17,728 nt of DNA from Bdellovibrionota bacterium (GTDB taxonomy: Bacteria > Bdellovibrionota > UBA1018 > UBA923), in the NCBI GenBank assembly GCA_040754655.1, contig JBFMCE010000081.1, forward strand, positions 1 through 17,728, written 5' to 3'. Both the position numbers and the translations under genes were made by a program. The notes beneath the pieces were generated by a model. That model had not been told where the DNA came from, searched no databases, and saw nothing but the letters and a program-made list of their open reading frames with translations. The number at the start of each line of letters is the position of its first letter. Positions within the stretch are counted from its first letter, which is position 1. Of the stretch, positions 1 to 17,728 are shown one piece after another.

Positions 1-637
1 CTGCTGGATCGATGGCGCCTAGAGAGCAGAGTGGGTCATTTAAGAACTTGAGCAAACCTTGCCAATAACTTTTTCCTACTAGAACCACGGGGAAGTTTTT
101 CATTTTACCCGTCTGGATAAGAGTTACGACTTCGAAGAACTCATCGAGCGTACCGAAGCCACCAGGCAAGACAATGAAAGCGTGAGAATATTTCGCAAGC
201 ATGAGCTTGCGGACAAAGAAATAGCGAAACTCTATCCACCGGTCGAGAAAGCCGTTGGGTCGTTGTTCCTTTGGAAGAGTGATGTTACAGCCAATTGATT
301 TCCCGCCAACGTCTTTAGCGCCTCGATTCGCGGCTTCCATGAGTCCGGGGCCGCCACCCGTCATGACCGTAAATCCCTTTTTTGCGACTTCTCGGCCGAT
401 ATCGCGGGCGAGCTGATAGTAGGGATGGCTTTCAGATGAAAATCGCGCTGATCCAAATACGGTTATACATGGGCCGACGAAATGAAGGGTTCGAAATCCC
501 TTGATGCACTCAAAAAAAATTCGGAGGGCTCGCTTGAGCTCTGAGAATCGAGAATGCCGACCCTCGAGAAAGTGTCTTTCTTCTTGGTCCGACGAACTCT
601 TTGCAAATCGACTTCTGTTTAGTGTGAAGGCGTCCAT
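1..637 (-). CDS. LOG family protein (TIGR00730-type Rossmann-fold nucleotide phosphoribohydrolase), 3' end truncated by window edge
   Basis: Not in ORF track. Manual translation from ATG at 637 is open to base 1: MDAFTLNRSRF...CITVFGSARF...VMTGGGPGLMEAANRGA...GCNITLPKEQRPN...FRYFFVRKLML...LPGGFGTLDEFFE. Contains the LOG signature PGGxGTxxE and TGGGPGxMEA. Confidence 0.93.
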   Translation of the reverse strand, partial: MDAFTLNRSRFAKSSSDQEERHFLEGRHSRFSELKRALRIFFECIKGFRTLHFVGPCITVFGSARFSSESHPYYQLARDIGREVAKKGFTVMTGGGPGLMEAANRGAKDVGGKSIGCNITLPKEQRPNGFLDRWIEFRYFFVRKLMLAKYSHAFIVLPGGFGTLDEFFEVVTLIQTGKMKNFPVVLVGKSYWQGLLKFLNDPLCSLGAIDPA

Positions 638-651
638 ACCTAGTATGGAAG

Positions 652-667
652 AGCAACGAACATGCCA
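652..667 (-). promoter_or_regulatory. sigma54 (RpoN) -24/-12 promoter of the LOG gene
   Basis: Minus strand TGGCATG-TTCG-TTGCT; GG(666,665)-N10-GC(654,653); one mismatch to consensus TGGCACG-N4-TTGCW; intergenic and correctly oriented. Confidence 0.85.
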
Positions 668-706
668 GGGTTCCCGAGCACGAGATCGTCGGAATTAACG
701 AAAATA

Positions 707-723
707 TGGGACAAATCAGCCCA
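707..723. promoter_or_regulatory. Putative enhancer (bEBP binding) site, proximal, LOG promoter
   Basis: TGGGACA-AAT-CAGCCCA; resembles the motif at 8561 and 13172; begins 41 nt upstream of the first G of the promoter GG. Confidence 0.6.
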
Positions 724-738
724 ACGTGAGGGCTTGAC

Positions 739-755
739 GGAGACTATGGATCCTA
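739..755. promoter_or_regulatory. Putative enhancer site, distal and degenerate, LOG promoter
   Basis: GGAGACT-ATG-GATCCTA; 9/14 match to TGAGACA-N3-TGTCCCA; 73 nt upstream of GG, the same offset as the distal site at the ccoI promoter. Confidence 0.35.
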
Positions 756-778
756 TTGGCCGCTGCTGGGGACGCCGA

Positions 779-1528
779 TCATTCATCCTGCCCCTTGTGC
801 ATGGGGCACTCACTTGGAGCTGACTTTTTATCTATGGCTTGTTCTTGTCCGCGCTCAAACACAAGCGGATATGACCTTAGGCCAACGGAGAACAAACCAA
901 CAGCAATTAAAATCAGTCCCGACAGACCTGGGACACTTCGACCTATTGGTTGGAAAACTTTCTTAATCAAGAGCGAGCTTAGCGTAAGCGCTGGAAGCGT
1001 TCCTAGCCAAAATAGAAGTAACACCAGCGCGCCGCTGACTGCACTTTGGGAAGCAATGCCAGCCAATACAAACGTAAAGAGCCAACCGCAGGGAAGAAGC
1101 GCCGTAAGGATCCCAAGTGAAAAAGATCCCACGTTTGTTCCGCGCTTCGCGCTCGCTTTATTCAACAAATAAGCATGGCTACTGCTCAAGGCGCTAGGGA
1201 GCTTTATGTGCAACGGTCTTTTCAGCAGAATTCTGAGACCAAGAAAAATAAATGTACAGCCGAGAAGAATGCTGCTGAAGATCGAGAGAGCTCGAAGTGA
1301 AGATGAGCCGAGTAAAGCAGAACCCATAAATCCGGAGAATGCACCGAGAGCGCAATATCCAAGCAATCTTCCGAGATGATAAAAGCCCAACGCGAACTTG
1401 TCGCGTGCGGCAACCATGACAAGTCCGCCACACATCGAAACACAATGGGCGCTTCCGAGTAAACTTGCGGTGATCACTGCCATTGGAATCACTGCTTTTG
1501 TGACCGGATCAGAGATATGGTCCAACAA
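779..1528 (-). CDS. DsbD_2 / TauE-SafE-like multi-TM protein of cbb3 oxidase clusters (probable assembly or metal/thiol handling factor)
   Basis: Motifs GSAHCVSMCGG, YHLGRLLGY, LLPCGWL, FWLGTLP; about 6-7 hydrophobic segments; overlaps the 3' end of ccoG. TTG start at 1528 or 1525 (GAGGTG lies 7 nt before 1525). Confidence 0.85.
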   Translation of the reverse strand: MLDHISDPVTKAVIPMAVITASLLGSAHCVSMCGGLVMVAARDKFALGFYHLGRLLGYCALGAFSGFMGSALLGSSSLRALSIFSSILLGCTFIFLGLRILLKRPLHIKLPSALSSSHAYLLNKASAKRGTNVGSFSLGILTALLPCGWLFTFVLAGIASQSAVSGALVLLLFWLGTLPALTLSSLLIKKVFQPIGRSVPGLSGLILIAVGLFSVGLRSYPLVFERGQEQAIDKKSAPSECPMHKGQDE

Positions 1529-2966
1529 GCGTCACCTCTTCTTTCGTCATAACTTGAGAATCGCTGTGATCGGACCGCGTAACAACTACTCCGATCACAG
1601 CCTTACCCTGACTGAGCAACTCTCTATCGAACTTGATGAACACTTCTGTCGTCATCTTTTGACCGGGAGAGAGTTCCAGTTGACTCATTGCTCCTATAAT
1701 TTCTATGGCGTGGGCCTTTGAGCCTTCCACCGCAAGCTTGACCCTGATGGGCTCGAAAGTTTGATTCGACAGTTCCACCTTGAATCGATTGGCGATCTTT
1801 CTCTTCCCATCGATATGCCCAAGATCTTGATACGGGACGTCATTAGGACGGACCAGAAGAAGCTCGACATCAGATCGACCTCTAACAGTCGCAATCAGTC
1901 CTATCGCCACCGCGAGTACGAGCAAGAAGTAAACAATGGTTCGTGGACGAATAAAGCTTGTCTTTTGGCCATGCATGGCCACTTCTGTCGCGTAACGAAT
2001 CAAGCCTCGAGGTTTTTTCAATCGCTCCATCACGTCATCGCAGGCGTCGATACACGCCGTGCACGCGATGCATTCGAGTTGCACGCCTCGCCTGATATCG
2101 ATTCCAGTCGGGCAAACCTGAACGCATCGATAACAATTTACGCAGTCGCCGGTTTTTTCTTGAGATATATGCGTCTGCTTTCGAGGCTCTCCTCTTTTTT
2201 CATCGTATGAAATCACGAGAGAATGATTGTCCATGAGAAGAGACTGAAACCGACCATAAGGACAAACGACGGTGCAGAATTGCTCCCTGAACCATCCGAA
2301 ATCGAATAGAAGAAGGCCGCTGAAAGCAGCCATGAAAAGAAAACTTCCGAAATTTTCACCCGGCGTGCGTCTTATGATCTGCCCTAGATTTTGCGCTCCA
2401 ACAAAATACGCAAGAAAACTATGGGAAATGACTAAAGTAACGCCAAGAAAGAGAGACCACTTGAGTGCCTTTTTCCAAACCTTGTCGCCACTCCATCCGC
2501 CGGCATCGAGTGCTTTTCTTGCGACGGCATCACCTTCAACAAATCGCTCGATTCGTCTAAAAACATTCTCAATGAACACGGTCTGAGGGCATGCCCATCC
2601 ACACCACGCTCTGCCCCAAACAGCCGTAATAAAGGCGATCGAAAGAGCTGCTCCCCCGAAGACGAACACAAGCATCGGAGCGTCATGAGCCCAAAACGTC
2701 AGTCCAAATATGGCGAATCGCCTGTTTGGAATATCGAGTAGAACGGACTGATAACCCCCGATATTAATCCATGGCAGAACGAGAAAGATCAAAATCAAAA
2801 AAACTTGAACGACGTTGCGATATTTTTTGAAGCGGCCAGTAACGTCGGATGGATACACATAGACCCGCCGTCCTTCTTTATCGCTGGTTGTAAGCCGATC
2901 TTGTGGAAGGTCCTTTGGATTAAGAATTTGCGAATCTGGTTTTGAGTTCTTAATGCCACCATCCAT
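1509..2966 (-). CDS. ccoG: cbb3 oxidase accessory protein CcoG/FixG (membrane 4Fe-4S protein)
   Basis: GRAWCGWACPQTVF, REQFCTVVCPYGRFQ, CVNCYRCVQVCPTGIDIR, ECIACTACIDACD; TM helices; C-terminal beta-rich domain; position after ccoP. Confidence 0.96.
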   Translation of the reverse strand: MDGGIKNSKPDSQILNPKDLPQDRLTTSDKEGRRVYVYPSDVTGRFKKYRNVVQVFLILIFLVLPWINIGGYQSVLLDIPNRRFAIFGLTFWAHDAPMLVFVFGGAALSIAFITAVWGRAWCGWACPQTVFIENVFRRIERFVEGDAVARKALDAGGWSGDKVWKKALKWSLFLGVTLVISHSFLAYFVGAQNLGQIIRRTPGENFGSFLFMAAFSGLLLFDFGWFREQFCTVVCPYGRFQSLLMDNHSLVISYDEKRGEPRKQTHISQEKTGDCVNCYRCVQVCPTGIDIRRGVQLECIACTACIDACDDVMERLKKPRGLIRYATEVAMHGQKTSFIRPRTIVYFLLVLAVAIGLIATVRGRSDVELLLVRPNDVPYQDLGHIDGKRKIANRFKVELSNQTFEPIRVKLAVEGSKAHAIEIIGAMSQLELSPGQKMTTEVFIKFDRELLSQGKAVIGVVVTRSDHSDSQVMTKEEVTLVGPYL

Positions 2967-2975
2967 AAGCTGTTT

Positions 2976-3542
2976 CTAGTCCTTGTACTCCTGTCCTTGG
3001 GGTTCTTTGCCACCTGGCGGGTTTGTCCCTTTGATCGACTTGATATAGGCGGTCACGGAGTAGAGTTCTTCTTCAGAAAGAATTGGTCCCCAAGGAGGCA
3101 TTCCCTTTTCTGGAACGCCTTCTTTTACGACCTGGGCAATAGCCGTGACTTTTCCATCGCCATGGAGCCAGAATTTGTCGGTAAGATTGGGGCCAATGCC
3201 GCCTCCGCCAGCGCCGCCGTGGCAAGAAGCGCATCGCATTTGGAAAACAGCCTTGCCTTTGCCGGTGTGCTCGGGACTCTTGTAGAAAGCCGTGAGCTTT
3301 GCTTCATTGAGAGATGGCTTTTGCGGCGCTGAATACTTTTTAGATTCGATGGCAGCCATTTCTTGATCGAATTCTTCTTGAATCGACACTCCACTGCCGA
3401 ATTCGTAATGGTAGTAATAGATCACACCGAATACGACCGTGACGTAAAAGAGGATCTTCCACCATCGCGGGAGCTGGTTATCGAGCTCGACGATTCCGTC
3501 ATACACATGCTTTTCGTCGCTATCATCTTGATGTGAGCTCAT
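2976..3542 (-). CDS. ccoP: cbb3-type cytochrome c oxidase subunit III, short monoheme form
   Basis: FixP_N motif HVYDGIVELDNQLPRWW, one TM helix, single CASCH heme site followed by GPNLTD and KGMPPW; SD GAGGAGG upstream; ATGA overlap with ccoQ. Confidence 0.94.
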   Translation of the reverse strand: MSSHQDDSDEKHVYDGIVELDNQLPRWWKILFYVTVVFGVIYYYHYEFGSGVSIQEEFDQEMAAIESKKYSAPQKPSLNEAKLTAFYKSPEHTGKGKAVFQMRCASCHGGAGGGGIGPNLTDKFWLHGDGKVTAIAQVVKEGVPEKGMPPWGPILSEEELYSVTAYIKSIKGTNPPGGKEPQGQEYKD

Positions 3543-3706
3543 TTTCGATCCTCCTCTAGCGGTAACACGCTAAGCTTCGCGTAAACTGGTTCACCCGACT
3601 TGCGAAACACCCAAGCTAAGGCCCCGCAAAACACTGCGAAGAAAATCAGAAGACCGATGCACGTTAGCCAAGGCATCGAAAAGTTCGCTAATACTTGCGC
3701 CTTCAT
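3539..3706 (-). CDS. ccoQ: cbb3-type cytochrome c oxidase small subunit CcoQ (55 aa)
   Basis: Not in ORF track. MKAQVLANFSMPWLTCIGLLIFFAVFCGALAWVFRKSGEPVYAKLSVLPLEEDRK; single TM helix and C-terminal LPLEE; ATGA overlaps with both ccoNO and ccoP; SD AAGGAG. Confidence 0.9.
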   Translation of the reverse strand: MKAQVLANFSMPWLTCIGLLIFFAVFCGALAWVFRKSGEPVYAKLSVLPLEEDRK

Positions 3707-5832
3707 TGTGCTTCTCCTTTCCCAAGCCGTTGCAGATACGCGATGAGAGCGACGATTTCACGTTCGGCCATTCCTTTAGGAATACCTTGTGCCTCAAGTT
3801 GACTTGCGATCTTATGTGCCTGTTCGCGAGCGAGTTCCTCTGCATGTTCGATTTCGGCGTCGCTATACGGCACGCCCATGCCTCTCATGACTTGGAGTTT
3901 CTTCTTGAGCGACCTAAAGTCTGCCTTATCGCGCACAAGCCACGGATAGCCTGGCATGATCGACTTCGGTGTTACTTCACGCGGATCGATCATGTGCCGA
4001 AAGTGCCAGAGGTCAGGATACTTGCCGCCGAGATTCGCGAGATCTGGTCCGGTACGTTTTGATCCCCACTGGTGGGGATAGTCATACATTGAATCTTCCG
4101 CCTTTGAGTGTTTTCCATAGCGCAAGACTTCTGAAGGAATAGGCCGCACCATTTGCGAGTGGCACGTGTAGCAACTTTCTCTGACATAGATATCGCGGCC
4201 CATAAGCTCGAGAGGCTTGTAGGGTTTGGCCTTCGAAGTCGTACCGACGTAGTTATGTGCCATTAAAGTTGGCATAATTTCGATGATGCTACCGACAAGC
4301 ACTGCGAGAAGCGTAAGCACTGTGAAGGTGGTGGGTAACGCTTCGAGAATGCGATGCGGACGTTTTTCCAAGAGCTTCGTGTAATCAACCTTCAAAGGTT
4401 CTGCGGTCTGCGGCTCGTCAGCGACTTTTGGCGCGCGCTTGATCGTCTTGTACAAGTTGTACGCAAGCATGCCGAAGCCGATGAGATAGAGCGTTCCTCC
4501 TATTGCGCGCAGCCAGTAGAGAGGGACGATGCGAATCACGGTCTCCACGAAATCCGGATACACGAGCCTGCCTTCAGCATTCACCGCGCGAAGCATGAGC
4601 CCTTGAGTGATGCCCGCGACCCACATCGAGAGAATGTAGAGAATGATTCCCAAGAAGCCGGTCCAGAAGTGGGCATTGGCAAGACGCGTGCTGTAAAGCT
4701 CGGTCTTCCATACCTTTGGAACGAGATAATACAACATGGCTGCGATTAAAAACCCGTTCCAGCCTAGTGTTCCGCCGTGGACGTGGCCTACGATCCAATC
4801 GGTATAATGCCCAAGAGCGCTCACTGATTTGATTGAAAGAAGCGGTCCCTCAAAAGTGGCCATGCCATAGAATGTCAGTGCCGCAACAAAGAACTTTAAG
4901 ATAGGTTCTGTGCGAACGCGGTTCCAAGCTCCACGCAAAGTTAAAAGACCGTTGATCATCCCGCCCCAACTCGGAGCGATCAGCATTACGCTGAATACCA
5001 TTCCTAGGGTCTGCGCCCACTCGGGAAGAGCTGTGTAAAGAAGATGATGAGGGCCTGCCCAGATATAAATGAATACGAGTGACCAGAAGTGAATGATCGA
5101 GAGTCGATAACTATAGACGGGTTGGCCTGCGGCTTTAGGAACGTAGTAATACATGAGCCCTAGAAATGGCGTGGTCAAAAAGAAAGCCACGGCATTGTGT
5201 CCATACCACCATTGCACGAGAGCATCCTGAACGCCGGCATAAACTGGATAGCTTTTGAGGAACGACACCGGGATCTCGACGGAATTCACGACGTGCAGAA
5301 CGGCAACCGTGATAATCGTGGCGATGTAGAACCAGATCGCGACATACATGTGTTGCTCGCGGCGTCTCCAGATGGTTCCCATGAAGTTCACGGCGAACAC
5401 GACCCAAACAAGCGTGATCGCAATATCGATCGGCCACTCAAGCTCGGCGTACTCCTTGCTCGTCGTGATCCCAAGCGGGAGCGTAATGGCGGCAGCCACA
5501 ATGATGGCTTGCCATCCCCAGAAGTGGATGCGACTTAGCGTATCGGAATAAAGCCTGGTTTTTAGAAGCCTTTGGCTTGAGTGATAAATTCCGGCGAAAA
5601 TCGCGTTTCCACCAAAAGCGAAGATGGCAGCATTCGTATGAAGTGGTCTTAATCTCCCGAAAGTGAGCCAGGGAAGATTGAAGTTTAGGCGCCAACTCGA
5701 AAGTTGAAACGCGATGAAGACGCCCAAAAGAAGGGCAACCAGTCCCCAGATGATGGTGGCCACAATGAATTTTTTCACCACGTCGTCGTCGTAAAAGAAT
5801 GTCTCTGTTTTATTCTGAGCTGGCGAATTCAT
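3703..5832 (-). CDS. ccoN: cbb3-type cytochrome c oxidase fused subunits I/II (CcoN-CcoO)
   Basis: CcoN motifs GRLRPLHTN, KEYAELEW, QWWYGHNAVAF, YIWAGPHHL, GHVHGG; in-frame CcoO with CYTCHSQMVRP, WGSKRTGPDL, SIMPGYPWL, ALIAYLQRLG; SD GGAG upstream. Confidence 0.98.
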   Translation of the reverse strand: MNSPAQNKTETFFYDDDVVKKFIVATIIWGLVALLLGVFIAFQLSSWRLNFNLPWLTFGRLRPLHTNAAIFAFGGNAIFAGIYHSSQRLLKTRLYSDTLSRIHFWGWQAIIVAAAITLPLGITTSKEYAELEWPIDIAITLVWVVFAVNFMGTIWRRREQHMYVAIWFYIATIITVAVLHVVNSVEIPVSFLKSYPVYAGVQDALVQWWYGHNAVAFFLTTPFLGLMYYYVPKAAGQPVYSYRLSIIHFWSLVFIYIWAGPHHLLYTALPEWAQTLGMVFSVMLIAPSWGGMINGLLTLRGAWNRVRTEPILKFFVAALTFYGMATFEGPLLSIKSVSALGHYTDWIVGHVHGGTLGWNGFLIAAMLYYLVPKVWKTELYSTRLANAHFWTGFLGIILYILSMWVAGITQGLMLRAVNAEGRLVYPDFVETVIRIVPLYWLRAIGGTLYLIGFGMLAYNLYKTIKRAPKVADEPQTAEPLKVDYTKLLEKRPHRILEALPTTFTVLTLLAVLVGSIIEIMPTLMAHNYVGTTSKAKPYKPLELMGRDIYVRESCYTCHSQMVRPIPSEVLRYGKHSKAEDSMYDYPHQWGSKRTGPDLANLGGKYPDLWHFRHMIDPREVTPKSIMPGYPWLVRDKADFRSLKKKLQVMRGMGVPYSDAEIEHAEELAREQAHKIASQLEAQGIPKGMAEREIVALIAYLQRLGKGEAQ

Positions 5833-5860
5833 GTCGTTTCACTCCATGGAACGTCCTGTT

Positions 5861-6019
5861 TCATCGCTTTGTCCTTTCAAGTTCATCTTCCAAGAAAATC
5901 CGGTGAGCGGGCGTTTCGAGGTCATCGTATTGCCCCTTGGATGTCGCCCAAAGATAGGCAGCGACAAATCCACATGAGATCAAAAGTGCTAAGGGAAGAA
6001 GTATTGCCAAGATGGTCAT
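5861..6019 (-). CDS. ccoS: cbb3 oxidase maturation protein CcoS/FixS (52 aa)
   Basis: Not in ORF track. MTILAILLPLALLISCGFVAAYLWATSKGQYDDLETPAHRIFLEDELERTKR; hallmark WAxxxGQYDDL; ATGA overlap with ccoI; GGAGG upstream. Confidence 0.95.
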   Translation of the reverse strand: MTILAILLPLALLISCGFVAAYLWATSKGQYDDLETPAHRIFLEDELERTKR

Positions 6020-8490
6020 TTTCCTCCCCTTTCTCGAAGAGCCTCGCGAAGCTTCCTTGTTCCGATCAGAGTAGAGCCGAATACAGTAAACGCGCTGACT
6101 GGCATCAAAAGCGCGGCAAGAAGAGGCGTCATATGGCCGCTGGCAGCCGTAACTCCGCCAACAAGGTTGTAAGCAAGTGAGAATGCGAAGTTTCGATGGA
6201 TGAGGCTCATGGTCTCTTTAGAGATGACGACAAGCTTTTCAATGTATCGTACGCCTGGGTGAGCGATGTAGACATCGGCAGCGCGAAGACTGACGTCCAT
6301 GCTTCCGTGTACAGCCACGCCGACGTAGGCACTCGAGAGTGCCAATGCGTCGTTTGCGCCGTCACCAGCCATGAGGCACGGTTCATGATTTTTTACAAAA
6401 CGACTTTTGTATTCCGGGGTTGCTACTGAAAAGTGACGATTCGTAGCTATCCCGATGGTTTCGCCAACATTTCGCACCACTTCGGGATCGTCGCCCGAAA
6501 GAATGAAAGAGTTGAGCCTGAACCTATTGAGCTCATCAATGGTCGTCTTTGCATCGACTCGAATTTTATCTCCAAGGAGAGCGGTCGCGATGAGCTTTGT
6601 TTCGCAGTAAACGCCAATTCGCGTTCCGACGCTCGCCGTATTTGTGCGATCGATTTCTTTCAATGATCTCACTTCATAGAATTGACCATTCACAAGCCCG
6701 GATACGCCTACGCCAATTTCCTCCTTAAAAGACGCGACGGGCAGCGAGGTGCCCGAGCCACGCGTTTTCAGAAACTGCACCAAGCTCTTCGCGACCGGAT
6801 GCTTTGATTGCTCTTCTAGAGCCACCACGATGTCGGCAATTTCTCGATGCAAGTGTGAGGTCTCTTTCCATTCAAGCACTTCAAATTTTCCATATGTCAG
6901 CGTTCCCGTCTTATCGAGGACCACGTTCTTCACTCGGGCCACTTTTTCGAGAATCTCTGCCCCGTTTATAAGAATTCCGGCTCGAGCAGCTTTTTTTAGC
7001 GACAAGCTCATCGCTAATGGGGTCGCAAGCGCCAAAGCGCAAGGACAAGTCACTATGATCAATGCCAGAGCTCTATTGATTCCATCCGAGAAATCCGCAC
7101 CTAATCCAAATACGATCGCAGCTCCGACAAATACGGCCGCTAAGAACCACTTTGAGACACGATCTGCGGCAATCACGATAGGAGCCTTTTTCAGACCGCC
7201 TTCTTCGATTTGTTTTAGAATCCGGCCCAGACGAGTTTGTCGCCCTAGTGCCGTGACCTTGATCTGTAGAACATCACTTTCATTCAATGTTCCGGAGTAC
7301 ACCTGGCTACCAGGGCAAACTCGATGCGGCGAAGATTCTCCGGTCAACAGTGACGAGTTGATGGCGCTGGTCCCACTCTGAACAGTTCCATCCACTGGGA
7401 TGACGTCGCCAGGGCCTACTTCAACAAGATCGCCTGGAAGCAGAGCCGCTGTATTCACTTCGACGATCGCGGCGGCCTTCACATCCAATCTCTTTGCCTT
7501 TGAGGGCAAAAGAAAATGATAGAGGTGTGACCCGCCAAGGTTGCGTTGCTGAATTCGTCTTAAGACGTAGCGACTTGAGAGCAAAAGAAAGACTAGAGCA
7601 GAGATCGAATCGAAGTAGATGTGATCCGTTTCATTTCGTAGATTGAATGCGCTGACGACTGCCCCTAGAACTATGGCAAGGATGACCGGAACATCTATCG
7701 ACAACGTCCTTGAGCGAAGCGACGCAATAGCGTTCTTGTAAAATGGAGCTGCGCTGTAAAACAATACGGGAAGAAACAGGGCAAGGCTGAGATAACGAAA
7801 ATAACGGGCAAGATCTCCGGCAAGACCAGCGTAGAGTGCGACTGCGAGAAGCATGATGTTGCCAGAACATGCTGCTGCAACACCGATGCGCATAAGCCAA
7901 CTACGGTTCTCAGCATTTTGAAGCTCTGAAGCCTTTTCATCGCTCTCGATGGGGTGTGGCCGGTATCCAAGCCATGCGAGCTTTTCGGCAGCTTTGGCAA
8001 ACGACCCACCAGGCGCAACCTTGATAGAAGCGACCGACTTTCCTAGGTCAAGCTTGGCTTCCTTGACATCAGGAACAATCTCTGGGAGCTTTTCAATGAG
8101 CCAAATGCAAGCAGCGCAATGCACGCCCTCAACGAAAAAGTCGATCTGAGGATCTTCTAACCCACGAGCATACTTTTCTCTGAAGACTGAGTCATCCAGG
8201 TAGCGATATTCAATGGCGTCGCCCCCGCCAGGTTGAATCTGCCGATCATTGTTCTGCTTCAGCTGGTAAAATCTCGACAGCCCACTGGATTGGAGAAACT
8301 GGTAAACCGTTTTGCAGCCGAGGCAACAGAATACTGGACTCGTCTCTCGAATATCGACTCGGTCTAAAACCTCTTTCCCGCAATGTGTACAAAATGCGGT
8401 CTCAAGCTTCGAATGAGGCTTTGATCTCGAATACGTAACTACCAATCTCTTTTTTCTCGTCTCTTCTTGAGACACTGATCTTGCGCTCAT
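6016..8490 (-). CDS. ccoI: P1B-type copper-translocating ATPase CcoI/FixI
   Basis: N-terminal CTHCG...FCCLGC domain, HMA motif HCAAC, LTGES, TCPCAL, DKTGTLT, HPVA, GDGANDA, AYN and LMPVS; heads the cco cluster. Confidence 0.95.
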   Translation of the reverse strand: MSARSVSQEETRKKRLVVTYSRSKPHSKLETAFCTHCGKEVLDRVDIRETSPVFCCLGCKTVYQFLQSSGLSRFYQLKQNNDRQIQPGGGDAIEYRYLDDSVFREKYARGLEDPQIDFFVEGVHCAACIWLIEKLPEIVPDVKEAKLDLGKSVASIKVAPGGSFAKAAEKLAWLGYRPHPIESDEKASELQNAENRSWLMRIGVAAACSGNIMLLAVALYAGLAGDLARYFRYLSLALFLPVLFYSAAPFYKNAIASLRSRTLSIDVPVILAIVLGAVVSAFNLRNETDHIYFDSISALVFLLLSSRYVLRRIQQRNLGGSHLYHFLLPSKAKRLDVKAAAIVEVNTAALLPGDLVEVGPGDVIPVDGTVQSGTSAINSSLLTGESSPHRVCPGSQVYSGTLNESDVLQIKVTALGRQTRLGRILKQIEEGGLKKAPIVIAADRVSKWFLAAVFVGAAIVFGLGADFSDGINRALALIIVTCPCALALATPLAMSLSLKKAARAGILINGAEILEKVARVKNVVLDKTGTLTYGKFEVLEWKETSHLHREIADIVVALEEQSKHPVAKSLVQFLKTRGSGTSLPVASFKEEIGVGVSGLVNGQFYEVRSLKEIDRTNTASVGTRIGVYCETKLIATALLGDKIRVDAKTTIDELNRFRLNSFILSGDDPEVVRNVGETIGIATNRHFSVATPEYKSRFVKNHEPCLMAGDGANDALALSSAYVGVAVHGSMDVSLRAADVYIAHPGVRYIEKLVVISKETMSLIHRNFAFSLAYNLVGGVTAASGHMTPLLAALLMPVSAFTVFGSTLIGTRKLREALRERGGK

Positions 8491-8504
8491 TCAATAGATA
8501 GTAT

Positions 8505-8520
8505 TGCAGGGCCTATGCCT
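8505..8520 (-). promoter_or_regulatory. sigma54 -24/-12 promoter of the cco operon
   Basis: Minus strand AGGCATA-GGCC-CTGCA; GG(8519,8518)-N10-GC(8507,8506); intergenic; same distance to ATG (16 nt) as the LOG promoter. Confidence 0.75.
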
Positions 8521-8560
8521 GCGAATCACCCACATGAAATCGCATAGATAGATGAAGCTT

Positions 8561-8577
8561 TGAGACGAATTGTCCCA
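8561..8577. promoter_or_regulatory. Putative enhancer site, proximal, cco promoter
   Basis: TGAGACG-AAT-TGTCCCA imperfect palindrome; 42 nt upstream of GG. Confidence 0.7.
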
Positions 8578-8585
8578 AGGCAAAC

Positions 8586-9356: not shown

Positions 9357-9357
9357 T

Positions 9358-11660: not shown

Positions 11661-13090
11661 GAGTCTTCAGGAAAATCCGCAGGCTCTTGCTCATCTCCCG
11701 TAAGGAGGCCGTATTCCCTCTCCTTGCGATAAAGGGTCCTGCGATTGATGCCCAAGATTTGGGCAGCTTTGTCTTTCCTGCCTCCGGTTTTCTCTAGCAC
11801 AAGCTCCATGTAGCGTTTTTCAAGAACTTCAACCGTCGGAAAATCTGAAGTGGCTGCACCAAAGAATTGATCGGCCGTAGCGACGTCAGACGTGGGGACA
11901 TCTTTGTCATCGATAAGCGATTCGGAACAAAGCACCACGGCGCGTTCGACGATGTTTTCGAGTTCGCGTACGTTGCCTTCCCACTTCGCGTTGACCAGCT
12001 TATTCATCGCGCTCTTCGTAAAGCCGGTAGCTTTCGAACCATTAGCAGCCGAATATTTGCGCAAGAAATGCTCTGCTAAGATCGGAATGTCCTCTTTGCG
12101 GTGGCGAAGCGGCGGAATGACGATCGGGATCACGCTTAAACGGTAATAAAGGTCTTCACGAAAGATGCCTTGTTTGATTCCGGCCTTTATGTCCTTGTGG
12201 GTTGCCGCGATGATTCGCACATCGATATCTTTTGTGGTGTTGGCGCCCACAGGACGAATCTTTCGCTCCTGAATCACGCGCAAGAGCTTTGCTTGCAGCG
12301 AGGGGTTCATGTCTCCGATTTCATCAAGAAATAGAGTTCCGCCTTCGGCCTCTTCGAATAATCCCTTTTTCTGCTGAACGGCACCCGTGAATGAACCTTT
12401 CGCATGCCCAAAAAGCTCTGACTCAAGAAGGTTCTCTGGGATCGCCGTGCAGTTGATGGCCACGAAGGGTTTGTCCTTGCGAGGGCCAGCATTGTGAATC
12501 GCCCGCGCGACCATTTCCTTGCCTGTTCCGCTCTCGCCCGTGATCAACACGTTGGCGTTGGCCTGTGAAACGCGGCTCACGAGGTCAAAGACCTCTTTCA
12601 TGCCTTGGCTTTTTCCGATGACGTCGCCAAGCGACCAAGATCGTTTGACTTCTTGGCGCAAGACCAAGTTGTCGCGAGACAGCTTTCTGTATTCGAGTGC
12701 TCGATCAGCGGTGACTCGCATTTCGGTGAGCTTGAACGGTTTGACGATGTAATCGTAGGCACCACGGCGAATAGCTTCGATTGCGGATTCGATGCTTCCG
12801 AACGCGGTAATAAGAATCACGGGTACTTTTGGGCAGATCTGCTTTAGCCGTTCCGCGAATTCCATTCCATCCACGTGGGGCATGTTGATGTCTGAAATAA
12901 TCAGATCAACACTTTCGTGTGGGATCTCCACTTTGCTGTCCGTCGCACCTGCTCCAAACGCGCGAAGCGCATCTGTCGCCAATCCAAAGACTGAGGTTTG
13001 AAAGCCTTCGGCTGAAAAGAAATCCTTCAGCAGAAGCCGCAGCTCTTTGTCGTCGTCGACGATTACGATATGGCCCTTGTGATCCTTCAT
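11657..13090 (-). CDS. sigma54-dependent response regulator (NtrC/AtoC/ZraR family: REC - AAA+ - Fis HTH)
   Basis: REC (IVDDD, IISDINMP, ITAFG, KPF), Walker A GESGTGKE, ESELFGHAKGSFTGA, Walker B FLDEIG, FREDLYYRL, WEGNVRELEN, HTH AAQILGINRRTLYRK. Start taken as ATG 13090 (GAGGAG 7 nt upstream), not GTG 13108. Confidence 0.96.
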   Translation of the reverse strand: MKDHKGHIVIVDDDKELRLLLKDFFSAEGFQTSVFGLATDALRAFGAGATDSKVEIPHESVDLIISDINMPHVDGMEFAERLKQICPKVPVILITAFGSIESAIEAIRRGAYDYIVKPFKLTEMRVTADRALEYRKLSRDNLVLRQEVKRSWSLGDVIGKSQGMKEVFDLVSRVSQANANVLITGESGTGKEMVARAIHNAGPRKDKPFVAINCTAIPENLLESELFGHAKGSFTGAVQQKKGLFEEAEGGTLFLDEIGDMNPSLQAKLLRVIQERKIRPVGANTTKDIDVRIIAATHKDIKAGIKQGIFREDLYYRLSVIPIVIPPLRHRKEDIPILAEHFLRKYSAANGSKATGFTKSAMNKLVNAKWEGNVRELENIVERAVVLCSESLIDDKDVPTSDVATADQFFGAATSDFPTVEVLEKRYMELVLEKTGGRKDKAAQILGINRRTLYRKEREYGLLTGDEQEPADFPEDS

Positions 13091-13171
13091 GAGACAGCTC
13101 CTCTCCACATCCTGCTACAAGGCAGTCCTGCGGACTGACGTACGTCTCGGGCTCCTGCCCTCGACGCCTCT

Positions 13172-13188
13172 TGAGACAAAATGTCCCC
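13172..13188. promoter_or_regulatory. Putative bEBP binding site upstream of the regulator gene
   Basis: TGAGACA-AAA-TGTCCCC, 13/14 match to the recurring motif. Confidence 0.7.
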
Positions 13189-13192
13189 TGTA

Positions 13193-13209
13193 TGAGACAT
13201 TATTACCAC
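13193..13209. promoter_or_regulatory. Second putative bEBP binding site upstream of the regulator gene
   Basis: TGAGACA-TTA-TTACCAC; perfect left half-site, 21 nt (two helical turns) from the 13172 site. Confidence 0.55.
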
Positions 13210-13235
13210 ACAAGGCCCTCTAACTATAGAGAATC

Positions 13236-13814
13236 TTAGTGCTTTCCTATAGATACAGCAGGGATTGTGCCAAGGTGCTCCAAGAGGGTCTCGAAGCGTT
13301 GAGCGAAGGCTCGAACCTCGTCCCAGTTCGTGTATTCGTAATCGCGGCTGGTGTCGGTATCACCGCCGGCTTTGCCTGCAATGTTCTTCATCAAGAGCTT
13401 CTTGAGCCAACCGTATTGGGAATACTTGAGCGCTCCAGCGAAGATGGTATGTAGCTCTGGGCTCCAACCTGCCTCGCGAAAGAAGTTTGCGACAATCTCA
13501 GCTTCCTCACGCTTTGCTTTGAGGTTCTTTTCTAGGATTCCAAGGCACACCGAAAAGAATGCCGAAGGTTTTCCGTGAATAAATACGAAATTTCTTCCGA
13601 CCCATTTTCGAAGTGCTTTATCGAATTTTCCTATGTGCACGGAAGAGCCAACGATAATGGCGTCGAATGCTTCGAGTTCCTTTCCTGTTGGTGCTTCAGA
13701 GGCAGGAAAGGTACGAACTCGGTGGCCCTTGCTCGAGATCTCTCGGGCAAGAGTTTCGGAGATCTTCGCGGTCTGTCCTTCAGTAGTTCCATAAACAATA
13801 AGTACGTGTGCCAT
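13236..13814 (-). CDS. hemG: Flavodoxin-domain protein, HemG-like menaquinone-dependent protoporphyrinogen IX dehydrogenase
   Basis: IVYGTTEGQTAKI (FMN P-loop), VGSSVHIGKF, AFFSVCL, FAGALKYSQYGW, DTSRDYEYTNWDEV; SD GGAGG. Confidence 0.85.
   Translation of the reverse strand: MAHVLIVYGTTEGQTAKISETLAREISSKGHRVRTFPASEAPTGKELEAFDAIIVGSSVHIGKFDKALRKWVGRNFVFIHGKPSAFFSVCLGILEKNLKAKREEAEIVANFFREAGWSPELHTIFAGALKYSQYGWLKKLLMKNIAGKAGGDTDTSRDYEYTNWDEVRAFAQRFETLLEHLGTIPAVSIGKH
13257..13272 (-). promoter_or_regulatory. Candidate sigma54 promoter for the regulator-nnrS-clsB-ybhP unit, embedded in the hemG 3' tail
   Basis: Minus strand TGGCACA-ATCC-CTGCT; GG(13271,13270)-N10-GC(13259,13258); followed by TATCTAT, which also follows the ccoI promoter. 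Confidence 0.6.
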
Positions 13815-13817
13815 GAT

Positions 13818-14288
13818 TCATCCCTCCAAAAGGCTTCTGAGCATCCACGCTGTTTTTTCGTGAAGCTGCATGCGTTGAGTAAGAAGATCTGCTGAGGCTT
13901 CGTCGCTCGCTTTCTCTACAGACGCGAACGCAGAGCGCGCTGTTCGAATGACGGCCTCGTGGCCTTCGACAAGTTGTTGGATCATCTCGCGTGAATTCGG
14001 AACGCCATCGGGCTCTTTGACTGACGTGAGCTTCGAAAACTCTTTGTAAGTAGCCGGAGCATAGACTCCAAGAGCGCGAATGCGTTCGGCGATCAGATCT
14101 ATTGCCGTCGAGAGTTCAGTATATTGTTGCTCGAACATCAAGTGCAGCGTCTGAAACATCGGACCTGTGACGTTCCAATGAAAGTTGTGCGTTTTCAAGT
14201 AAAGGGTGTATGAGTCCGCCAAAAGCTTCGACAGCTCTCCTGCGATTGTTTTTCGATCATTCTCTGAGATTCCGATATTGATTGCCAT
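13818..14288 (-). CDS. dps: Dps family DNA starvation/stationary-phase protection protein (156 aa)
   Basis: [47 protein letters not shown]; start taken at ATG 14288 (AAAGGA upstream) rather than 14303. Confidence 0.97.
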
Positions 14289-14315
14289 ATAAGTTCCTTT
14301 CATTTGATTTTACGG

Positions 14316-15374
14316 TTACGGAGTAATTGCGACTTTCAGCACGCCGTCTCTTTGATGAGAGAACAGCTCATACGCTTCTTGAATTTCGTCGAGCTTGAAC
14401 CGATGAGTGACCATTGGTCTAAGATCAACAGACCCGGCGCTCACCACTTCCATGAGTCGTCGCATTCTTTCTTTGCCGCCAGGGCAAAGAGTCGCGTGAA
14501 CTTTGTGGTCACCAAGACCTGCTGCAAAGGCATCGAGCGGCAGAGTCAGTTTTCCGGAATAAACGCCTAAGCTCGAGAGAGTGCCGCCTGGTCTCAGTGA
14601 ACGAAGACACGATTCGAACGTTTGCTGCGATCCAAGCGCTTCAATGGCGACATCCACTCCCCGATTTGAAGTCAGTCTTATGATCTCTTTTACAGGATCT
14701 GTTTTTTCGTAATTGATGATGTCGGTCGCGCCCATGGCTTTCGCCATTTCGAGGCGACGTTCGAGGTGGTCAACGACGATGATGCGCGAGGCTCCGCGCA
14801 AGCGAGCGCCAGCTGTTGCGCAAAGCCCAATGGGGCCTTGAGCGAAAACAGCGACAGTATCACCAATTTTGATGCTGCCGCTTTCGGCGCCGCCGAAACC
14901 AGTGCTCATAATGTCAGGACACATGAGCACTTGCTCGTCAGTCAGGTGATCAGGAACAGGACTCAAGTTCGCCTGGGCATTTGGCACTAAGACGTATTCC
15001 GCTTGGCAACCATCGATCGTGTTTCCAAAACGCCAACCGCCCATCAAATGGCCGCCGCATTGTGCCTGAACCCCATCAAGGCAAGGGTTGCATTGGCCGC
15101 AGGGAGTAATTGCTCCAGCGATGACCCGTTGACCGATCTTGTATCCACTCACCGCGGAGCCCAGTTCAGCAATAACGCCGACAGGTTCATGCCCAACGGT
15201 AAGACCTGGTTTAACGGGATATTCGCCTTTGAGGATGTGAACATCGGTTCCGCAGATAGTGGTGGTTGTGATGCGAATCAGGGCGTCTGTGGGACCGACT
15301 TTCGGAACGGTTTTTTTTTGAATTTCGATCAAGCCTGGTCTTACAAATACCGCGGCTTTCATTGTCTTATCCAT
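14316..15374 (-). CDS. Zn-dependent NAD(P) alcohol dehydrogenase (MDR family)
   Basis: TICGTDVH, GHEPVG, structural Zn CGQCNPC...C, CPDIMSTG (Asp as third catalytic ligand), AQGPIG. Start uncertain: 15374 (GGAG 6 nt upstream), 15362 (ATGA overlap) or 15386. Confidence 0.92.
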   Translation of the reverse strand: MDKTMKAAVFVRPGLIEIQKKTVPKVGPTDALIRITTTTICGTDVHILKGEYPVKPGLTVGHEPVGVIAELGSAVSGYKIGQRVIAGAITPCGQCNPCLDGVQAQCGGHLMGGWRFGNTIDGCQAEYVLVPNAQANLSPVPDHLTDEQVLMCPDIMSTGFGGAESGSIKIGDTVAVFAQGPIGLCATAGARLRGASRIIVVDHLERRLEMAKAMGATDIINYEKTDPVKEIIRLTSNRGVDVAIEALGSQQTFESCLRSLRPGGTLSSLGVYSGKLTLPLDAFAAGLGDHKVHATLCPGGKERMRRLMEVVSAGSVDLRPMVTHRFKLDEIQEAYELFSHQRDGVLKVAITP

Positions 15375-16633
15375 ATTTCTCTCCATGCCTTTTCTAATTT
15401 TTCTCGCTCTTCCGGATGCGCGATCGAGATCAGCGCTTTAGCTCTTTGAGCCAGTGTCAGGCCGTAAAGATCAACAACTCCGTGCTCGGTAATCACGTAA
15501 TGGACGTGAGCGCGTGTCGTGACGACACCGGCACCTTGCTTGAGCATCGGAACAATTCTTGAAATGCCTTTTCTGGTCTTGCTCGTAAGGGCGATAATCG
15601 GTTTTCCGCCGATGGAAAGCGAAGCACCGCGCATGAAATCGATTTGTCCGCCTGCGCCCGAGATCACTCGAGGCCCAATCGAGTCAGCGCAGACTTGACC
15701 AGTCAGATCAATTTCGACGGCAGAGTTTATGGCAACGACCTTTGGATTTCTCGCAATATTGATGGGGCTGTTCACATATCCAACGTCGAGCCCGACGACA
15801 CTGGGATTATCGTGGACGAAGTCGTAGAGTCTCTTTGACCCCATGATGAAGCTAGAAACGGTTCTTCCCGGGTGCATTTTCTTTTGTGAGTTATCGACAA
15901 CGCCACAACGAATTAATTCAAGGGCTCCATCGCTCCACATCTCAGTATGAATTCCCAGATGACGATGCCCCTTGAGTTCGGCCAGGACTGCATCGGGAAT
16001 TGTCCCGATGCCCATTTGTAAAGTAGAGCCATCTTCAATAATTCCCGAAGCGAAGCGACCGATAGCGGTTTCTTCAGCAGTCGGCGGAGTTCGTTTCACT
16101 TCTGGCAGCGGACTATCGACTTCGATGGCATGGTGAATTTGGTCTACATGGATAAATCCGTCTCCATGAACCCGAGGCATCTGTAGATTAATTTGCGCGA
16201 TGATCACTTTCGCTGCGTCGACAGCGGCTCGTGCGGCGTCTACGCTCGTGCCCAGCGTGCAGAACCCGTGTTGGTCTGGCGGTGACACTTGAATGAGAGC
16301 CACATCGATCGGGACTTTTCCAGATCGAAGAAGCTGCGGAATCTCAGATAAGAAACAGGGGATATAGTCGACATGGCCTGGGTCGAGTTTTTCGCGCATG
16401 TTGGCGCCAACAAAGAATGCCGAAACTTTAAAGCTCGCTCGATATGCAGGGTCTGCGTATTTCATTTCACCTATGGTGTGAAGATGAAAGAGCTCGACGT
16501 TCCGCAGACGAGAAGCATCTTCCACTAGAGCCTTGAGAAGGCGGCTCGGAGTCGCTGCGGCGCCGTGTACGAAAATGCGCTGATTTGATTGAATGGCTGC
16601 TATAGCGTCTTTGGCATTCTGATACTTCTTCAT
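15359..16633 (-). CDS. Acetyl-CoA hydrolase/transferase family (4-hydroxybutyrate CoA-transferase-like)
   Basis: QVSPPDQHGFCTLG, TLQMGIGTIP, LGIHTEM (catalytic Glu), INSAVEIDLTGQVCADSIG, SGAGGQIDFMRGA, ITEHG, LISIAHP. Confidence 0.95.
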   Translation of the reverse strand: MKKYQNAKDAIAAIQSNQRIFVHGAAATPSRLLKALVEDASRLRNVELFHLHTIGEMKYADPAYRASFKVSAFFVGANMREKLDPGHVDYIPCFLSEIPQLLRSGKVPIDVALIQVSPPDQHGFCTLGTSVDAARAAVDAAKVIIAQINLQMPRVHGDGFIHVDQIHHAIEVDSPLPEVKRTPPTAEETAIGRFASGIIEDGSTLQMGIGTIPDAVLAELKGHRHLGIHTEMWSDGALELIRCGVVDNSQKKMHPGRTVSSFIMGSKRLYDFVHDNPSVVGLDVGYVNSPINIARNPKVVAINSAVEIDLTGQVCADSIGPRVISGAGGQIDFMRGASLSIGGKPIIALTSKTRKGISRIVPMLKQGAGVVTTRAHVHYVITEHGVVDLYGLTLAQRAKALISIAHPEEREKLEKAWREIWIRQ

Positions 16634-16635
16634 GC

Positions 16636-17664
16636 TCAGCTAGCCTTTACCACGCGGTTCACGTGAGTCTGAGCGCGCACTTCATTGACGAGCCGGTGAT
16701 GCTTTTCAAATTCTTTGATGTTCATCAGCGTCGTTGTTGCGATATTTGCCAGTGCTTCGCAGGTAAGAAACGCTTGATGGGATGTGACTAAAACATTCGG
16801 AAAGGTGAGAAGTCGGGCTAGGACGTCGTCCTGCAAAACCTTATCAGACAAGTCTTGAAAGAATACTGCCTCTTCTTCTTCATAAACGTCAAGACCAGCG
16901 GCTCCAAGTGATCCATTTTTGAGGGCGAGAATGAGCGCGCGGGTATCAATCAAGGCTCCTCGCCCGGTATTGATGAGAATCGCTCCTCGTTTCATTTTCG
17001 CGAAAACAGGCTCATCGATGAGATGATTTGTTTTTGGAGTCAGGGGTATGTGCAGCGAGATAATGTCGGATGCCTGATAAAGCTCGTTGAGACTTACGTA
17101 TTCAACTCCATACGTTTTTGAGAGAAACGCGTCCGGCTCTACGTCGTAGGCCAGAACGCGGCATCCAAAGCCTTTCATGATGCGCGCGAAAACCGAACCT
17201 ATTTTTCCAGTGCCAATCACGCCCACAGTTTTGCCGTGGATATCGAAGCCCACAAGCCCATCGAGGCTGAAATTAGACTCACGAACACGCTCATAGGCGC
17301 GATGGATCTTCCGATTCAGGGCGAGCAAGAGTCCCACGGCGTGTTCTGCTACGGCGTAGGGAGAGTATTCAGGAACTCTGACGATAGGAAGTCCGAGCAT
17401 TGCGGCGGCATCCAGATCAACATGATTGAAGCCCGCTGATCGTAGGGCGATGATACGGGCACCCTGGGCTTTCAATCGAGTCAGCGTCTTCTCGTTCAAT
17501 TGGTCGTTCACGAAAGCACAGATAGCGTCGTAGCCCTTTGCCAAGGCCGCGGTCTGTTCATTCAGGCGCGGCTCAAAAAAGGTCAGGTCATGACCAAACT
17601 CTTTGTTTGCTTGCTCGAAGAAAGGCTTTTCAAATTTGTGTGCGCTAAAGATGGCAGTCTTCAT
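16636..17664 (-). CDS. ldhA: D-lactate dehydrogenase, fermentative LdhA-type 2-hydroxyacid dehydrogenase
   Basis: CAFVND, LRSAGFNHVD, RVPEYSPYAVAEH, NFSLDGLVGFD, GTGKIG, INTGRG, LDVYEEE, TSHQAFLT. Confidence 0.93.
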   Translation of the reverse strand: MKTAIFSAHKFEKPFFEQANKEFGHDLTFFEPRLNEQTAALAKGYDAICAFVNDQLNEKTLTRLKAQGARIIALRSAGFNHVDLDAAAMLGLPIVRVPEYSPYAVAEHAVGLLLALNRKIHRAYERVRESNFSLDGLVGFDIHGKTVGVIGTGKIGSVFARIMKGFGCRVLAYDVEPDAFLSKTYGVEYVSLNELYQASDIISLHIPLTPKTNHLIDEPVFAKMKRGAILINTGRGALIDTRALILALKNGSLGAAGLDVYEEEEAVFFQDLSDKVLQDDVLARLLTFPNVLVTSHQAFLTCEALANIATTTLMNIKEFEKHHRLVNEVRAQTHVNRVVKAS

Positions 17665-17677
17665 GAAGCTATTAATT

Positions 17678-17693
17678 TACAAATAGCGTGCCG
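17678..17693 (-). promoter_or_regulatory. sigma54 -24/-12 promoter of the ldhA operon (TTGT variant at -12)
   Basis: Minus strand CGGCACG-CTAT-TTGTA; GG(17692,17691)-N10-GT(17680,17679); strong -24 box; 15 nt from the -12 base to ATG. Confidence 0.72.
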
Positions 17694-17710
17694 ACAATTT
17701 TTATATTTAA

Positions 17711-17723
17711 ATTCAAATAGTTA
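17711..17723 (+). promoter_or_regulatory. IHF-like binding site upstream of the ldhA sigma54 promoter
   Basis: ATTCAAATAGTTA, one mismatch to WATCAANNNNTTR, preceded by an AT tract (17696-17710). Confidence 0.55.
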
Positions 17724-17728
17724 CAATA

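Follow-up and report, generated by a model that had tools for sequence, protein, structure and literature searches.

The 17,728-nucleotide stretch analyzed here (the window) is the entire contig C81 (JBFMCE010000081.1) of a Bdellovibrionota genome assembly (GCA_040754655.1; 3.78 Mb in 196 contigs, 90% complete). Judging from sequence, its cytochrome cbb3 oxidase and stress-survival genes appear to be switched on by a flavin-type histidine kinase and a sigma-54 activator, not by FNR. All 17 genes of the window lie on the minus strand and are arranged as four units, within which neighboring genes overlap or are separated by at most 28 bp and between which 95–145 bp remain. Unit 1 comprises, in order, ldh, a CoA transferase gene, adh, dps, and a hemG-like gene; unit 2 comprises the activator gene, nnrS, a clsB-like gene, and an endonuclease/exonuclease/phosphatase (EEP) gene; and unit 3 comprises ccoI, ccoS, a fused ccoNO, ccoQ, ccoP, ccoG, and a DsbD_2-family gene. 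Within the window, unit 4 is a LOG-family gene alone. The genome also contains rpoN and, elsewhere (contig C4), encodes a second heme-copper oxidase of A-type size.

Each unit is preceded by a sigma-54-type element on the minus strand. These elements are located at 652..667 (TGGCATGTTCGTTGCT, score 17.4) for unit 4, which consists of LOG and then probably a PAS kinase gene on contig C119; at 8505..8520 (AGGCATAGGCCCTGCA) for the cco unit, where the ccoI ATG follows 30 bp later; at 13257..13272 (TGGCACAATCCCTGCT, score 16.7) for the activator unit, within the 3′ end of hemG; and at 17678..17693 (CGGCACGCTATTTGTA) for unit 1. The coordinates and layout of these elements agree with a preliminary description of this DNA, in which all four were given as GG-N10-GC. 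The canonical GG (−24) and GC (−12), ten bases apart, are present in three of the four, and the ldh element is instead GG-N10-GT. No other minus-strand site in the window scores 10 or higher. Sites scoring at least 13.1 on either strand occur in the genome at 1.0 per 17.7 kb, compared with four in the window, each before a unit's first gene. The start codon lies 29–30 bp downstream of three of the four sites, and in the ccoI upstream regions of other genomes the best sigma-54 site falls at −28 to −33 in 10 of 34 cases. Transcription from these sites is predicted to start only 3–5 nt before the predicted ATG of ccoI, LOG, and ldh (8490-8520, 637-667, and 17664-17693), which leaves no room for a Shine-Dalgarno sequence; given these start codons, the three mRNAs may possibly be near-leaderless.

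The candidate regulator is encoded at 11657..13108 on the minus strand, with a probable start at ATG 13090. It combines receiver (REC), AAA+, and Fis-type domains (PF00072, PF00158, and PF02954) and retains the phospho-acceptor Asp and the Walker A and B motifs. Its GAFTGA-type loop reads GSFTGA, a variant that can be active, as in PilR. The nearest titled relatives, at 62–69% identity, come from metagenome-assembled genomes labelled Bdellovibrionales. Of 116 genomes from the order, 64 proved to have an ortholog, and a looser threshold gave matches in 122 of 401 genomes sampled from the phylum. For comparison, 80 loci were assembled: 60 from 58 of the 63 other ortholog-bearing genomes of the order, and 20 hand-picked loci on long contigs from the 66 matching genomes outside it. 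In trees built with FastTree, and with IQ-TREE on 33 of 95 rows, the activator rows that were placed form one clade (support 100). The sister clade (90/81, not starred) lies beside protoglobin kinases in Myxococcota genomes.

Expectation-maximization motif discovery, run on 96 regions upstream of orthologs of ccoI and of the activator gene and leaving out the window's own genome, yielded the palindrome TG(G/A)GACA-WWW-TGTC(C/T)CA. The top genome-wide matches of this relative-trained palindrome are the window promoters, and the five best combinations of enhancer and sigma-54 site lie on C81 and on the adjoining contig C65. The palindrome is positioned 48–51 bp upstream of three window sigma-54 sites (cco, LOG, and ldh) and downstream of the activator's own. 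The genome's best match is the proximal cco enhancer at 8560..8578 (score 21.1; 49 bp upstream of the sigma-54 site), accompanied by a distal copy at 8591..8609 (score 14.3; 80 bp upstream), and the unit 4 enhancer is found at 706..724 (score 16.4; 48 bp upstream). The two enhancers of the ldh site, 51 and 72 bp upstream, lie on C65 and are shared with a divergent MBL/beta-CASP gene; on the same contig, enhancers occur 48, 50, 40, and 61 bp upstream of three further sigma-54 sites. On its own, the enhancer matrix shows no genome-wide enrichment (54 matches scoring at least 12 versus 90–214 with permuted matrices), and therefore only pairs were counted, a pair being an enhancer 35–110 bp from a sigma-54 site. 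Pairs were found at 56 of 84 orthologous loci (39 of 64 in the order and 17 of 20 untrained loci from other orders), at 2 of 20 Myxococcota loci, and at 0 of 75 loci of unrelated activators (0 of 74 without L029 of G426). Permuted enhancer matrices gave only 0–2 pairs. CBS-domain (28) and universal stress protein (USP; 15) promoters also carry pairs, and many such targets lie outside the training set. The spacings between enhancer and sigma-54 site cluster about 37, 48, 58, 69, 79, 90, and 101 bp, and thus recur about every 10.5 bp (R 0.46, n = 151; for untrained loci, R 0.62 and n = 57), as expected for an activator that contacts the sigma-54 polymerase.

These observations bear on one objection, namely that the sigma-54-like sites are chance occurrences, or else respond to a different one among the genome's 18 strong sigma-54 activator matches, and that the operons use sigma-70 promoters. 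The genome holds about 213 sites scoring at least 13.1, and the ldh site lacks GC at −12, both of which would fit such an explanation. Nevertheless, it is the least probable of those considered here, because the site before ccoI has a fixed position, the enhancers are helically phased, and the pair is absent where the activator is not found. In addition, TTGTA is found in four enhancer-paired sigma-54 sites of relatives, and only four sigma-70-like sites are present in the window versus 14.2 expected from shuffles, none of them before any unit's first gene.

At the activator's own promoter, the enhancers are a weak copy at 13192..13210 (score 8.2), 71 bp downstream of the sigma-54 site and fitting a +70 class among orthologs, and a strong copy at 13171..13189 (score 18.3), 92 bp downstream and belonging to a +90 class. 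Upstream of the activator gene, a sigma-54 site scoring at least 10 occurs in 30 of 79 Bdellovibrionota loci, one short locus having been left out. In 24 of these 30, an enhancer follows the sigma-54 site between +60 and +102, and these distances too are phased (R 0.76, n = 37). A few activators (FlrC, FleQ, and RocR) are known to use enhancers that lie downstream, and the phasing seen in these sequences favors activation by looping over a simple roadblock.

Across genomes, the pair upstream of ccoI follows the activator. In a table of 51 genomes (52 minus L383, which has no real upstream sequence), 26 of the 41 activator-bearing genomes and 0 of the 10 without the activator have a pair within 1.5 kb upstream of ccoI, most of these ccoI regions having been in the motif training set. 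For untrained regions with at least 300 bp of upstream sequence, the corresponding values are 4 of 10 and 0 of 7. The proposal that one REC-type activator acting at sigma-54 promoters drives the cbb3 operon is thus sustained by the conserved position of the ccoI promoter and by a dedicated enhancer that tracks the activator.

In other bacteria, FNR/FixK/Anr and FixLJ control ccoNOQP, as PMC11841059 also cites. The output is the same here, a cbb3 oxidase with its assembly genes, but the window's genome has no Crp/Fnr gene over cut-off, no FNR box, and sigma-54 in place of sigma-70 promoters. More precisely, no Crp helix-turn-helix over cut-off was found in this 90%-complete genome, and TTGAT-N4-ATCAA was not found in the window, in line with the preliminary description; looser versions match coding DNA only. 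Among relatives, 20 of 116 genomes encode an FNR-like protein whose nearest models, Fnr or FixK, are below cut-off, and 18 of the 20 proteins carry an N-terminal C-x2-C-x8-C. The gene neighbors ccoI in 13 and a CBS gene in 14 of the 20. In the tabled genomes, a pair at ccoI was found in 0 of 7 with the FNR-like gene versus 26 of 44 without. In some relatives the FNR-like protein would appear to take the same regulatory slot, and this swap is independent support for oxygen as the signal.

The system had been called self-contained, which it is not: two adjoining contigs carry the ldh enhancers, three further units, and the gene for the kinase. The right end of C81 overlaps that of C65 by 19 bp, as do 23 other end pairs in the assembly, and C65 continues with the divergent MBL/beta-CASP gene, a CBS gene, a gene for a secreted monoheme protein, and a USP gene. 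At its left end, C119 carries the last 49 codons of LOG (residues 206–254 of an 80%-identical LOG, E 1e-12). That LOG is split across C81 and C119 is shown by three of four close homologs and not by two distant homologs or a broad hidden Markov model (E 0.064, second-ranked). After LOG follows a PAS-HisKA-HATPase histidine kinase of the flavin adenine dinucleotide (FAD)-PAS type (C119:259-1395, 378 residues). Its eight closest orthologs, in the activator-bearing genomes G111, G067, G029, G110, G028, G084, G023, and G021 (activator matched at the threshold of the 64/116 count), all lie on the activator contig. The cluster is therefore compact, spans three contigs, and includes its sensor. The genome's second-best enhancer copy is found at C119:213-231, 37 bp before the kinase start and with no sigma-54 site close by. 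Similar sites precede 3 of 18 kinase homologs, and this copy is possibly a repression site.

The best match of the kinase PAS domain is MmoS (3EWK, E 3e-50), followed by Aer and NifL. Based on alignments to 3EWK and 8DIK, the domain keeps the His, Asn, and Arg of the FAD pocket (H63, N95, and R126) as well as W80, which we take to be the flavin-PAS Trp. Of the 69 nearest kinases, 22 have the full FAD-PAS signature and 56 keep the Trp and Asn. The same His, Asn, and Arg are named for a low-potential FAD pocket in the available part of PMC9668731. In keeping these residues the kinase resembles the FAD-PAS redox sensors MmoS (PDB 3EWK), Aer (8DIK), and NifL (2GJ3); it differs from these proteins in being a minimal PAS-HisKA-HATPase protein beside a sigma-54 response regulator, with flavin binding predicted.

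In the 80 loci, which extend up to 20 kb and are in many cases shorter, genes no more than about 10 kb away from the activator were tallied: the kinase was counted 69 times, CBS 46, the monoheme protein 43, USP 37, ccoNO 28, and ccoI 26 times. These are followed by MBL (17), Hsp20 (13), ldh (10), clsB (8), CoA transferase (3), hemG (2), LOG (2), dps (1), adh (1), and nnrS (0). From these counts, the core of the system is predicted to consist of the kinase, the activator, CBS, USP, the cytochrome, and cco, and nnrS, dps, adh, hemG, clsB, and LOG are probably lineage-specific, peripheral recruits. The counts do not support the fixed gene set assumed at first, in which dps, adh, hemG, LOG, clsB, and ldh all had a place. 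Hypoxia sets of USP, CBS, Hsp20, and fermentation-type enzymes are known from the DosR regulon of mycobacteria and the low-oxygen-activated locus of Burkholderia, whose regulators are unrelated and which are not known to be sigma-54 dependent. The monoheme protein (C65:16967-18124; minus strand of L201:15264-16421) is a secreted protein of 385 residues with an invariant CxxCH and no Pfam match. Its predicted model (pLDDT 86) suggests an N-terminal four-helix bundle like cytochrome c′ (Z 9.6, under the trusted level for helical bundles) and C-terminal tetratricopeptide repeats (Z 10.8), both as leads only, and Foldseek returned no match at E 0.001 or better. Two further families without a Pfam match each occur in 20 of the 80 loci: secreted proteins of ~250 residues with 11 predicted promoters (L156:6434-7174) and proteins of ~119 residues (L125:11296-11655).

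The same counts bear on nitric oxide (NO), which had been put forward as a defining signal. A primary response to NO would be in keeping with the overlap of nnrS and the activator gene in the window, a multicopper oxidase among the targets, and the cytochrome c′-like bundle of the core monoheme protein, if that sub-threshold likeness is real. In addition, 7 of 29 nnrS loci elsewhere in relatives have a pair within 1.5 kb. However, nnrS is absent from the activator's vicinity in all 80 loci of relatives, and three of the seven pair-linked nnrS genes come after a Crp/Fnr-family gene of their own. Moreover, the activator is not of the NorR or NnrR/DNR type; it has a receiver and not a GAF domain, and it scores far below the cut-off of the NorR model. 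NO as the primary cue is accordingly very unlikely; NO handling is a peripheral arm, and the NO label is weak. In L351, L353, and L355, the Crp/Fnr-family gene lies directly upstream of nnrS and beside an enhancer–sigma-54 pair, and in these relatives an NO-responsive regulator may stand below the activator in a cascade. No match to this Crp-like neighbor was found in the window's genome.

The arrangement is best explained, with a probability of about 0.7, as a two-component, sigma-54-dependent low-oxygen (respiratory redox) regulon that would be typical of many Bdellovibrionota. In the proposed mechanism, the soluble PAS-HisKA-HATPase kinase would bind FAD like MmoS and Aer and read the respiratory redox state, and a drop in oxygen or electron flow would lead it to phosphorylate the activator's receiver. 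The activator would then bind the palindrome, whole helical turns from the sigma-54 site, and open the promoters of the cco operon, of the ldh–CoA transferase–adh–dps–hemG unit, of LOG with the kinase, and, on the next contig, of MBL, CBS, and the monoheme cytochrome with USP. From the downstream enhancers it would act on its own promoter, in either sign.

Several points weigh against this explanation. The regulon, its signal, and its regulatory sign are predictions from sequence. The sigma-54 matrix consists of general consensus weights, one column of which was relaxed after the first scan of ccoI upstream regions. Conservation of the sigma-54 elements in orthologous loci extends to the position of the ccoI promoter and not to the LOG promoter, as none of 24 LOG homologs has a site scoring at least 10 upstream. 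Neither a sigma-54 site nor an enhancer is present in 33 of 83 activator upstream regions, and no pair lies within 1.5 kb of ccoI in 15 of 41 activator-bearing genomes, 13 of which have at least 300 bp upstream. The Fisher values for the ccoI-table contrasts (0.0003 and 0.004) overstate the significance, as kin are not independent. With 18 sigma-54 activators in the genome, the assignment of this one rests on linkage and profile. Of the 69 nearest kinases, 13 lack the flavin-PAS pair, several of these being receiver-kinase hybrids. Finally, the activator is kept in 11 of the 20 genomes with the FNR-like protein, so that the exclusion between that protein and the pair holds at the ccoI promoter and not genome-wide, and no clear FNR box was found at FNR-linked ccoI promoters, where only two-mismatch matches occur.

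The same wiring could instead answer to general energy or growth arrest, such as dormancy or starvation between prey, and not to oxygen. The core targets CBS, USP, Hsp20, and Dps are proteins common to dormancy in general, only 26 of the 80 loci show linkage to ccoI, and FAD-PAS domains read the electron-transport state and not O2 itself, as stated in PMC9668731. Against such a cue, relatives have an FNR-like protein with a Cys cluster in place of the enhancer at ccoI and CBS, and the activator's sister clade adjoins globin-coupled kinases. Moreover, the cbb3 enzyme is a high-affinity oxidase. An energy or growth-arrest signal is considered unlikely on this balance, though it deserves more weight than the other alternatives to the low-oxygen regulon.

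Control of this kind had been thought undescribed. However, according to PMC11841059, sigma-54/NtrC-type control of a P-type ATPase–cbb3 operon, CBS, and USP is known in Myxococcus xanthus. There, seven promoters contain GCGCA-N5-TGCGC boxes bound by NmpR; among them are the promoters of the P-type ATPase–cbb3 operon, of hemN, of a USP gene, and of NmpR's own operon, which a CBS gene leads. The mxan_4236 promoter shows sigma-54 dependence and 6.5-fold hypoxic induction. As far as the available parts of PMC11841059 and PMC6211767 show, the NmpRSTU system shares with the present one an NtrC-like REC-AAA+-HTH activator and sigma-54 promoters with paired enhancers. By site prediction here, the two also share their targets (a P-type ATPase-first cbb3 operon, CBS, USP, and their own signaling genes), to which a heme-synthesis gene and a proposed low-oxygen role can be added, and their target sets may overlap further. 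The differences, drawn from the same partial sources, concern the activator clade, the recognition helix (INRRTLYRK here versus ISQRKIQY), the box (TGRGACA-W3-TGTCYCA here versus GCGCA-N5-TGCGC), and the sensor, which is a single FAD-type PAS kinase here and a protoglobin kinase (NmpU) with a hybrid kinase (NmpS) and a phospho-sink relay there. In addition, the present activator promoter is served from downstream sites, the heme gene is hemG-like and not hemN, and the genes are clustered with the regulator.

Whether the present system could be a diverged ortholog of NmpRSTU, and not a separate recruitment, was weighed against these data. The common target logic, including autoregulation, would be expected of an ortholog, as would two palindromic boxes of similar span and the receiver-kinase hybrids like NmpS in a few loci. 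In contrast, an approximately unbiased (AU) test rejects a single clade of the Bdellovibrionota activators and NmpR-like proteins (p 0.018), with M. xanthus NmpR itself outside the tree and the NmpR-like proteins picked for synteny with protoglobin kinases and for resemblance to peptides read from the paper's primers. A search with the published primer did not find M. xanthus nmpR in the 401 genomes, a sample that may not include Myxococcus. The recognition helices differ, no GCA-N5-TGC core was found at the four window promoter regions, and protoglobin (PF11563) was not found in the 90%-complete genome. Orthology to NmpRSTU is on this evidence improbable. In the Myxococcota sister clade, the enhancer palindrome recurs in two of four loci, at a distance of 46 bp from a sigma-54 site. 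Loci L286, L288, L296, and L299 of this clade combine globin-coupled kinases with CBS, USP, and cco, and once with the monoheme protein; they form a second sigma-54 system with a globin sensor, separate from the clade of NmpR-like proteins. What is already known from the Myxococcus work is that, under hypoxia, sigma-54 controls a cbb3 operon headed by ccoI; since this concept is published, the surprise is moderate. What appears new from the sequences is that the regulator clade, enhancer, and sensor differ from NmpRSTU, though the working logic is alike. A literature search, with most subscription journals outside its coverage, found no paper on this Bdellovibrionota system, and the part of a sigma-54 regulon survey (PMC12316311) that was available makes no mention of Bdellovibrio or cbb3.

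The remaining genes of the window, all on the minus strand, were assigned by family. In unit 1, ldh (16636..17664) encodes a D-lactate dehydrogenase-like 2-hydroxyacid dehydrogenase (Pfam 2-Hacid_dh; NCBIfam D-LDH models below cut-off). It is followed by an acetyl-CoA hydrolase/transferase-family CoA transferase (15359..16633; PF02550 and PF13336), a putative zinc-binding alcohol dehydrogenase (adh, 14316..15386; ADH_N and ADH_zinc_N), a Dps-like ferritin protein (13818..14303; below the Dps equivalog cut-off), and a HemG-like flavodoxin that is a candidate protoporphyrinogen dehydrogenase (13236..13814; NF008316 133 bits versus a cut-off of 142; Flavodoxin_5). In unit 2, the NnrS-family membrane protein (10482..11660; PF05940, 121.5 bits) overlaps the activator stop codon. 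Next are a ClsB-like cardiolipin synthase (9358..10518) with an uncertain start (about 10488-10518), two PLDc_2 domains, and NF008427 and TIGR04265 below cut-off, and an EEP protein (8586..9356; PF03372), which we take to be a YbhP-like partner of ClsB. The cco unit encodes a CcoI-type P1B ATPase (6016..8490; TIGR01525 over cut-off, PF12156), CcoS (5861..6019; TIGR00847 over cut-off), fused CcoNO (3703..5832; NF011053, 1214 bits, over cut-off), CcoQ (3539..3706; PF05545), a monoheme CcoP (2976..3542; FixP_N and Cytochrome_CBB3), CcoG (1509..2966; TIGR02745 over cut-off), and, last, a DsbD_2-family membrane protein (779..1528; PF13386). The LOG-family protein (2..637; TIGR00730) is truncated by the contig end. 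Putative roles in fermentation, oxygen-independent heme synthesis, and cardiolipin synthesis come from family names only. On the adjoining contigs, genes for a Na/Ca exchanger and for a cation P-type ATPase flank an enhancer copy at C119:2543-2561, where both strands have weak sigma-54 sites. Just past the cation ATPase, an integrase fragment and a ParA-like ATPase (C119:5658-9070) suggest that the cluster borders on a mobile element here. On C65, a 2,262-residue open reading frame with a signal-peptide-like start occupies 3387-10172, and a putative operon adjoining the regulon (11786-15718), with an ArsR-family regulator, two rhodaneses, an MBL-fold protein, TauE, and a major facilitator superfamily transporter, resembles those for persulfide detoxification.

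A broader proposal is made more tentatively, at somewhat less than even odds: that the system is a phylum-wide low-oxygen master switch of Bdellovibrionota, recruited independently of NmpR, in which the kinase and activator are interchangeable with an FNR-like protein at cbb3 and CBS and the activator gene is driven from downstream phased enhancers. If this is true, bacteria of these predatory lineages would respond to oxygen mainly through this switch. As it stands, the predicted kinase, activator, binding site, and target list offer a concrete, testable answer to the question of how Bdellovibrionota handle low oxygen. Sigma-54 control of cbb3 would not be peculiar to Myxococcus, and its exchange with FNR at one and the same promoter inside a single order would be a clean case of regulator replacement.

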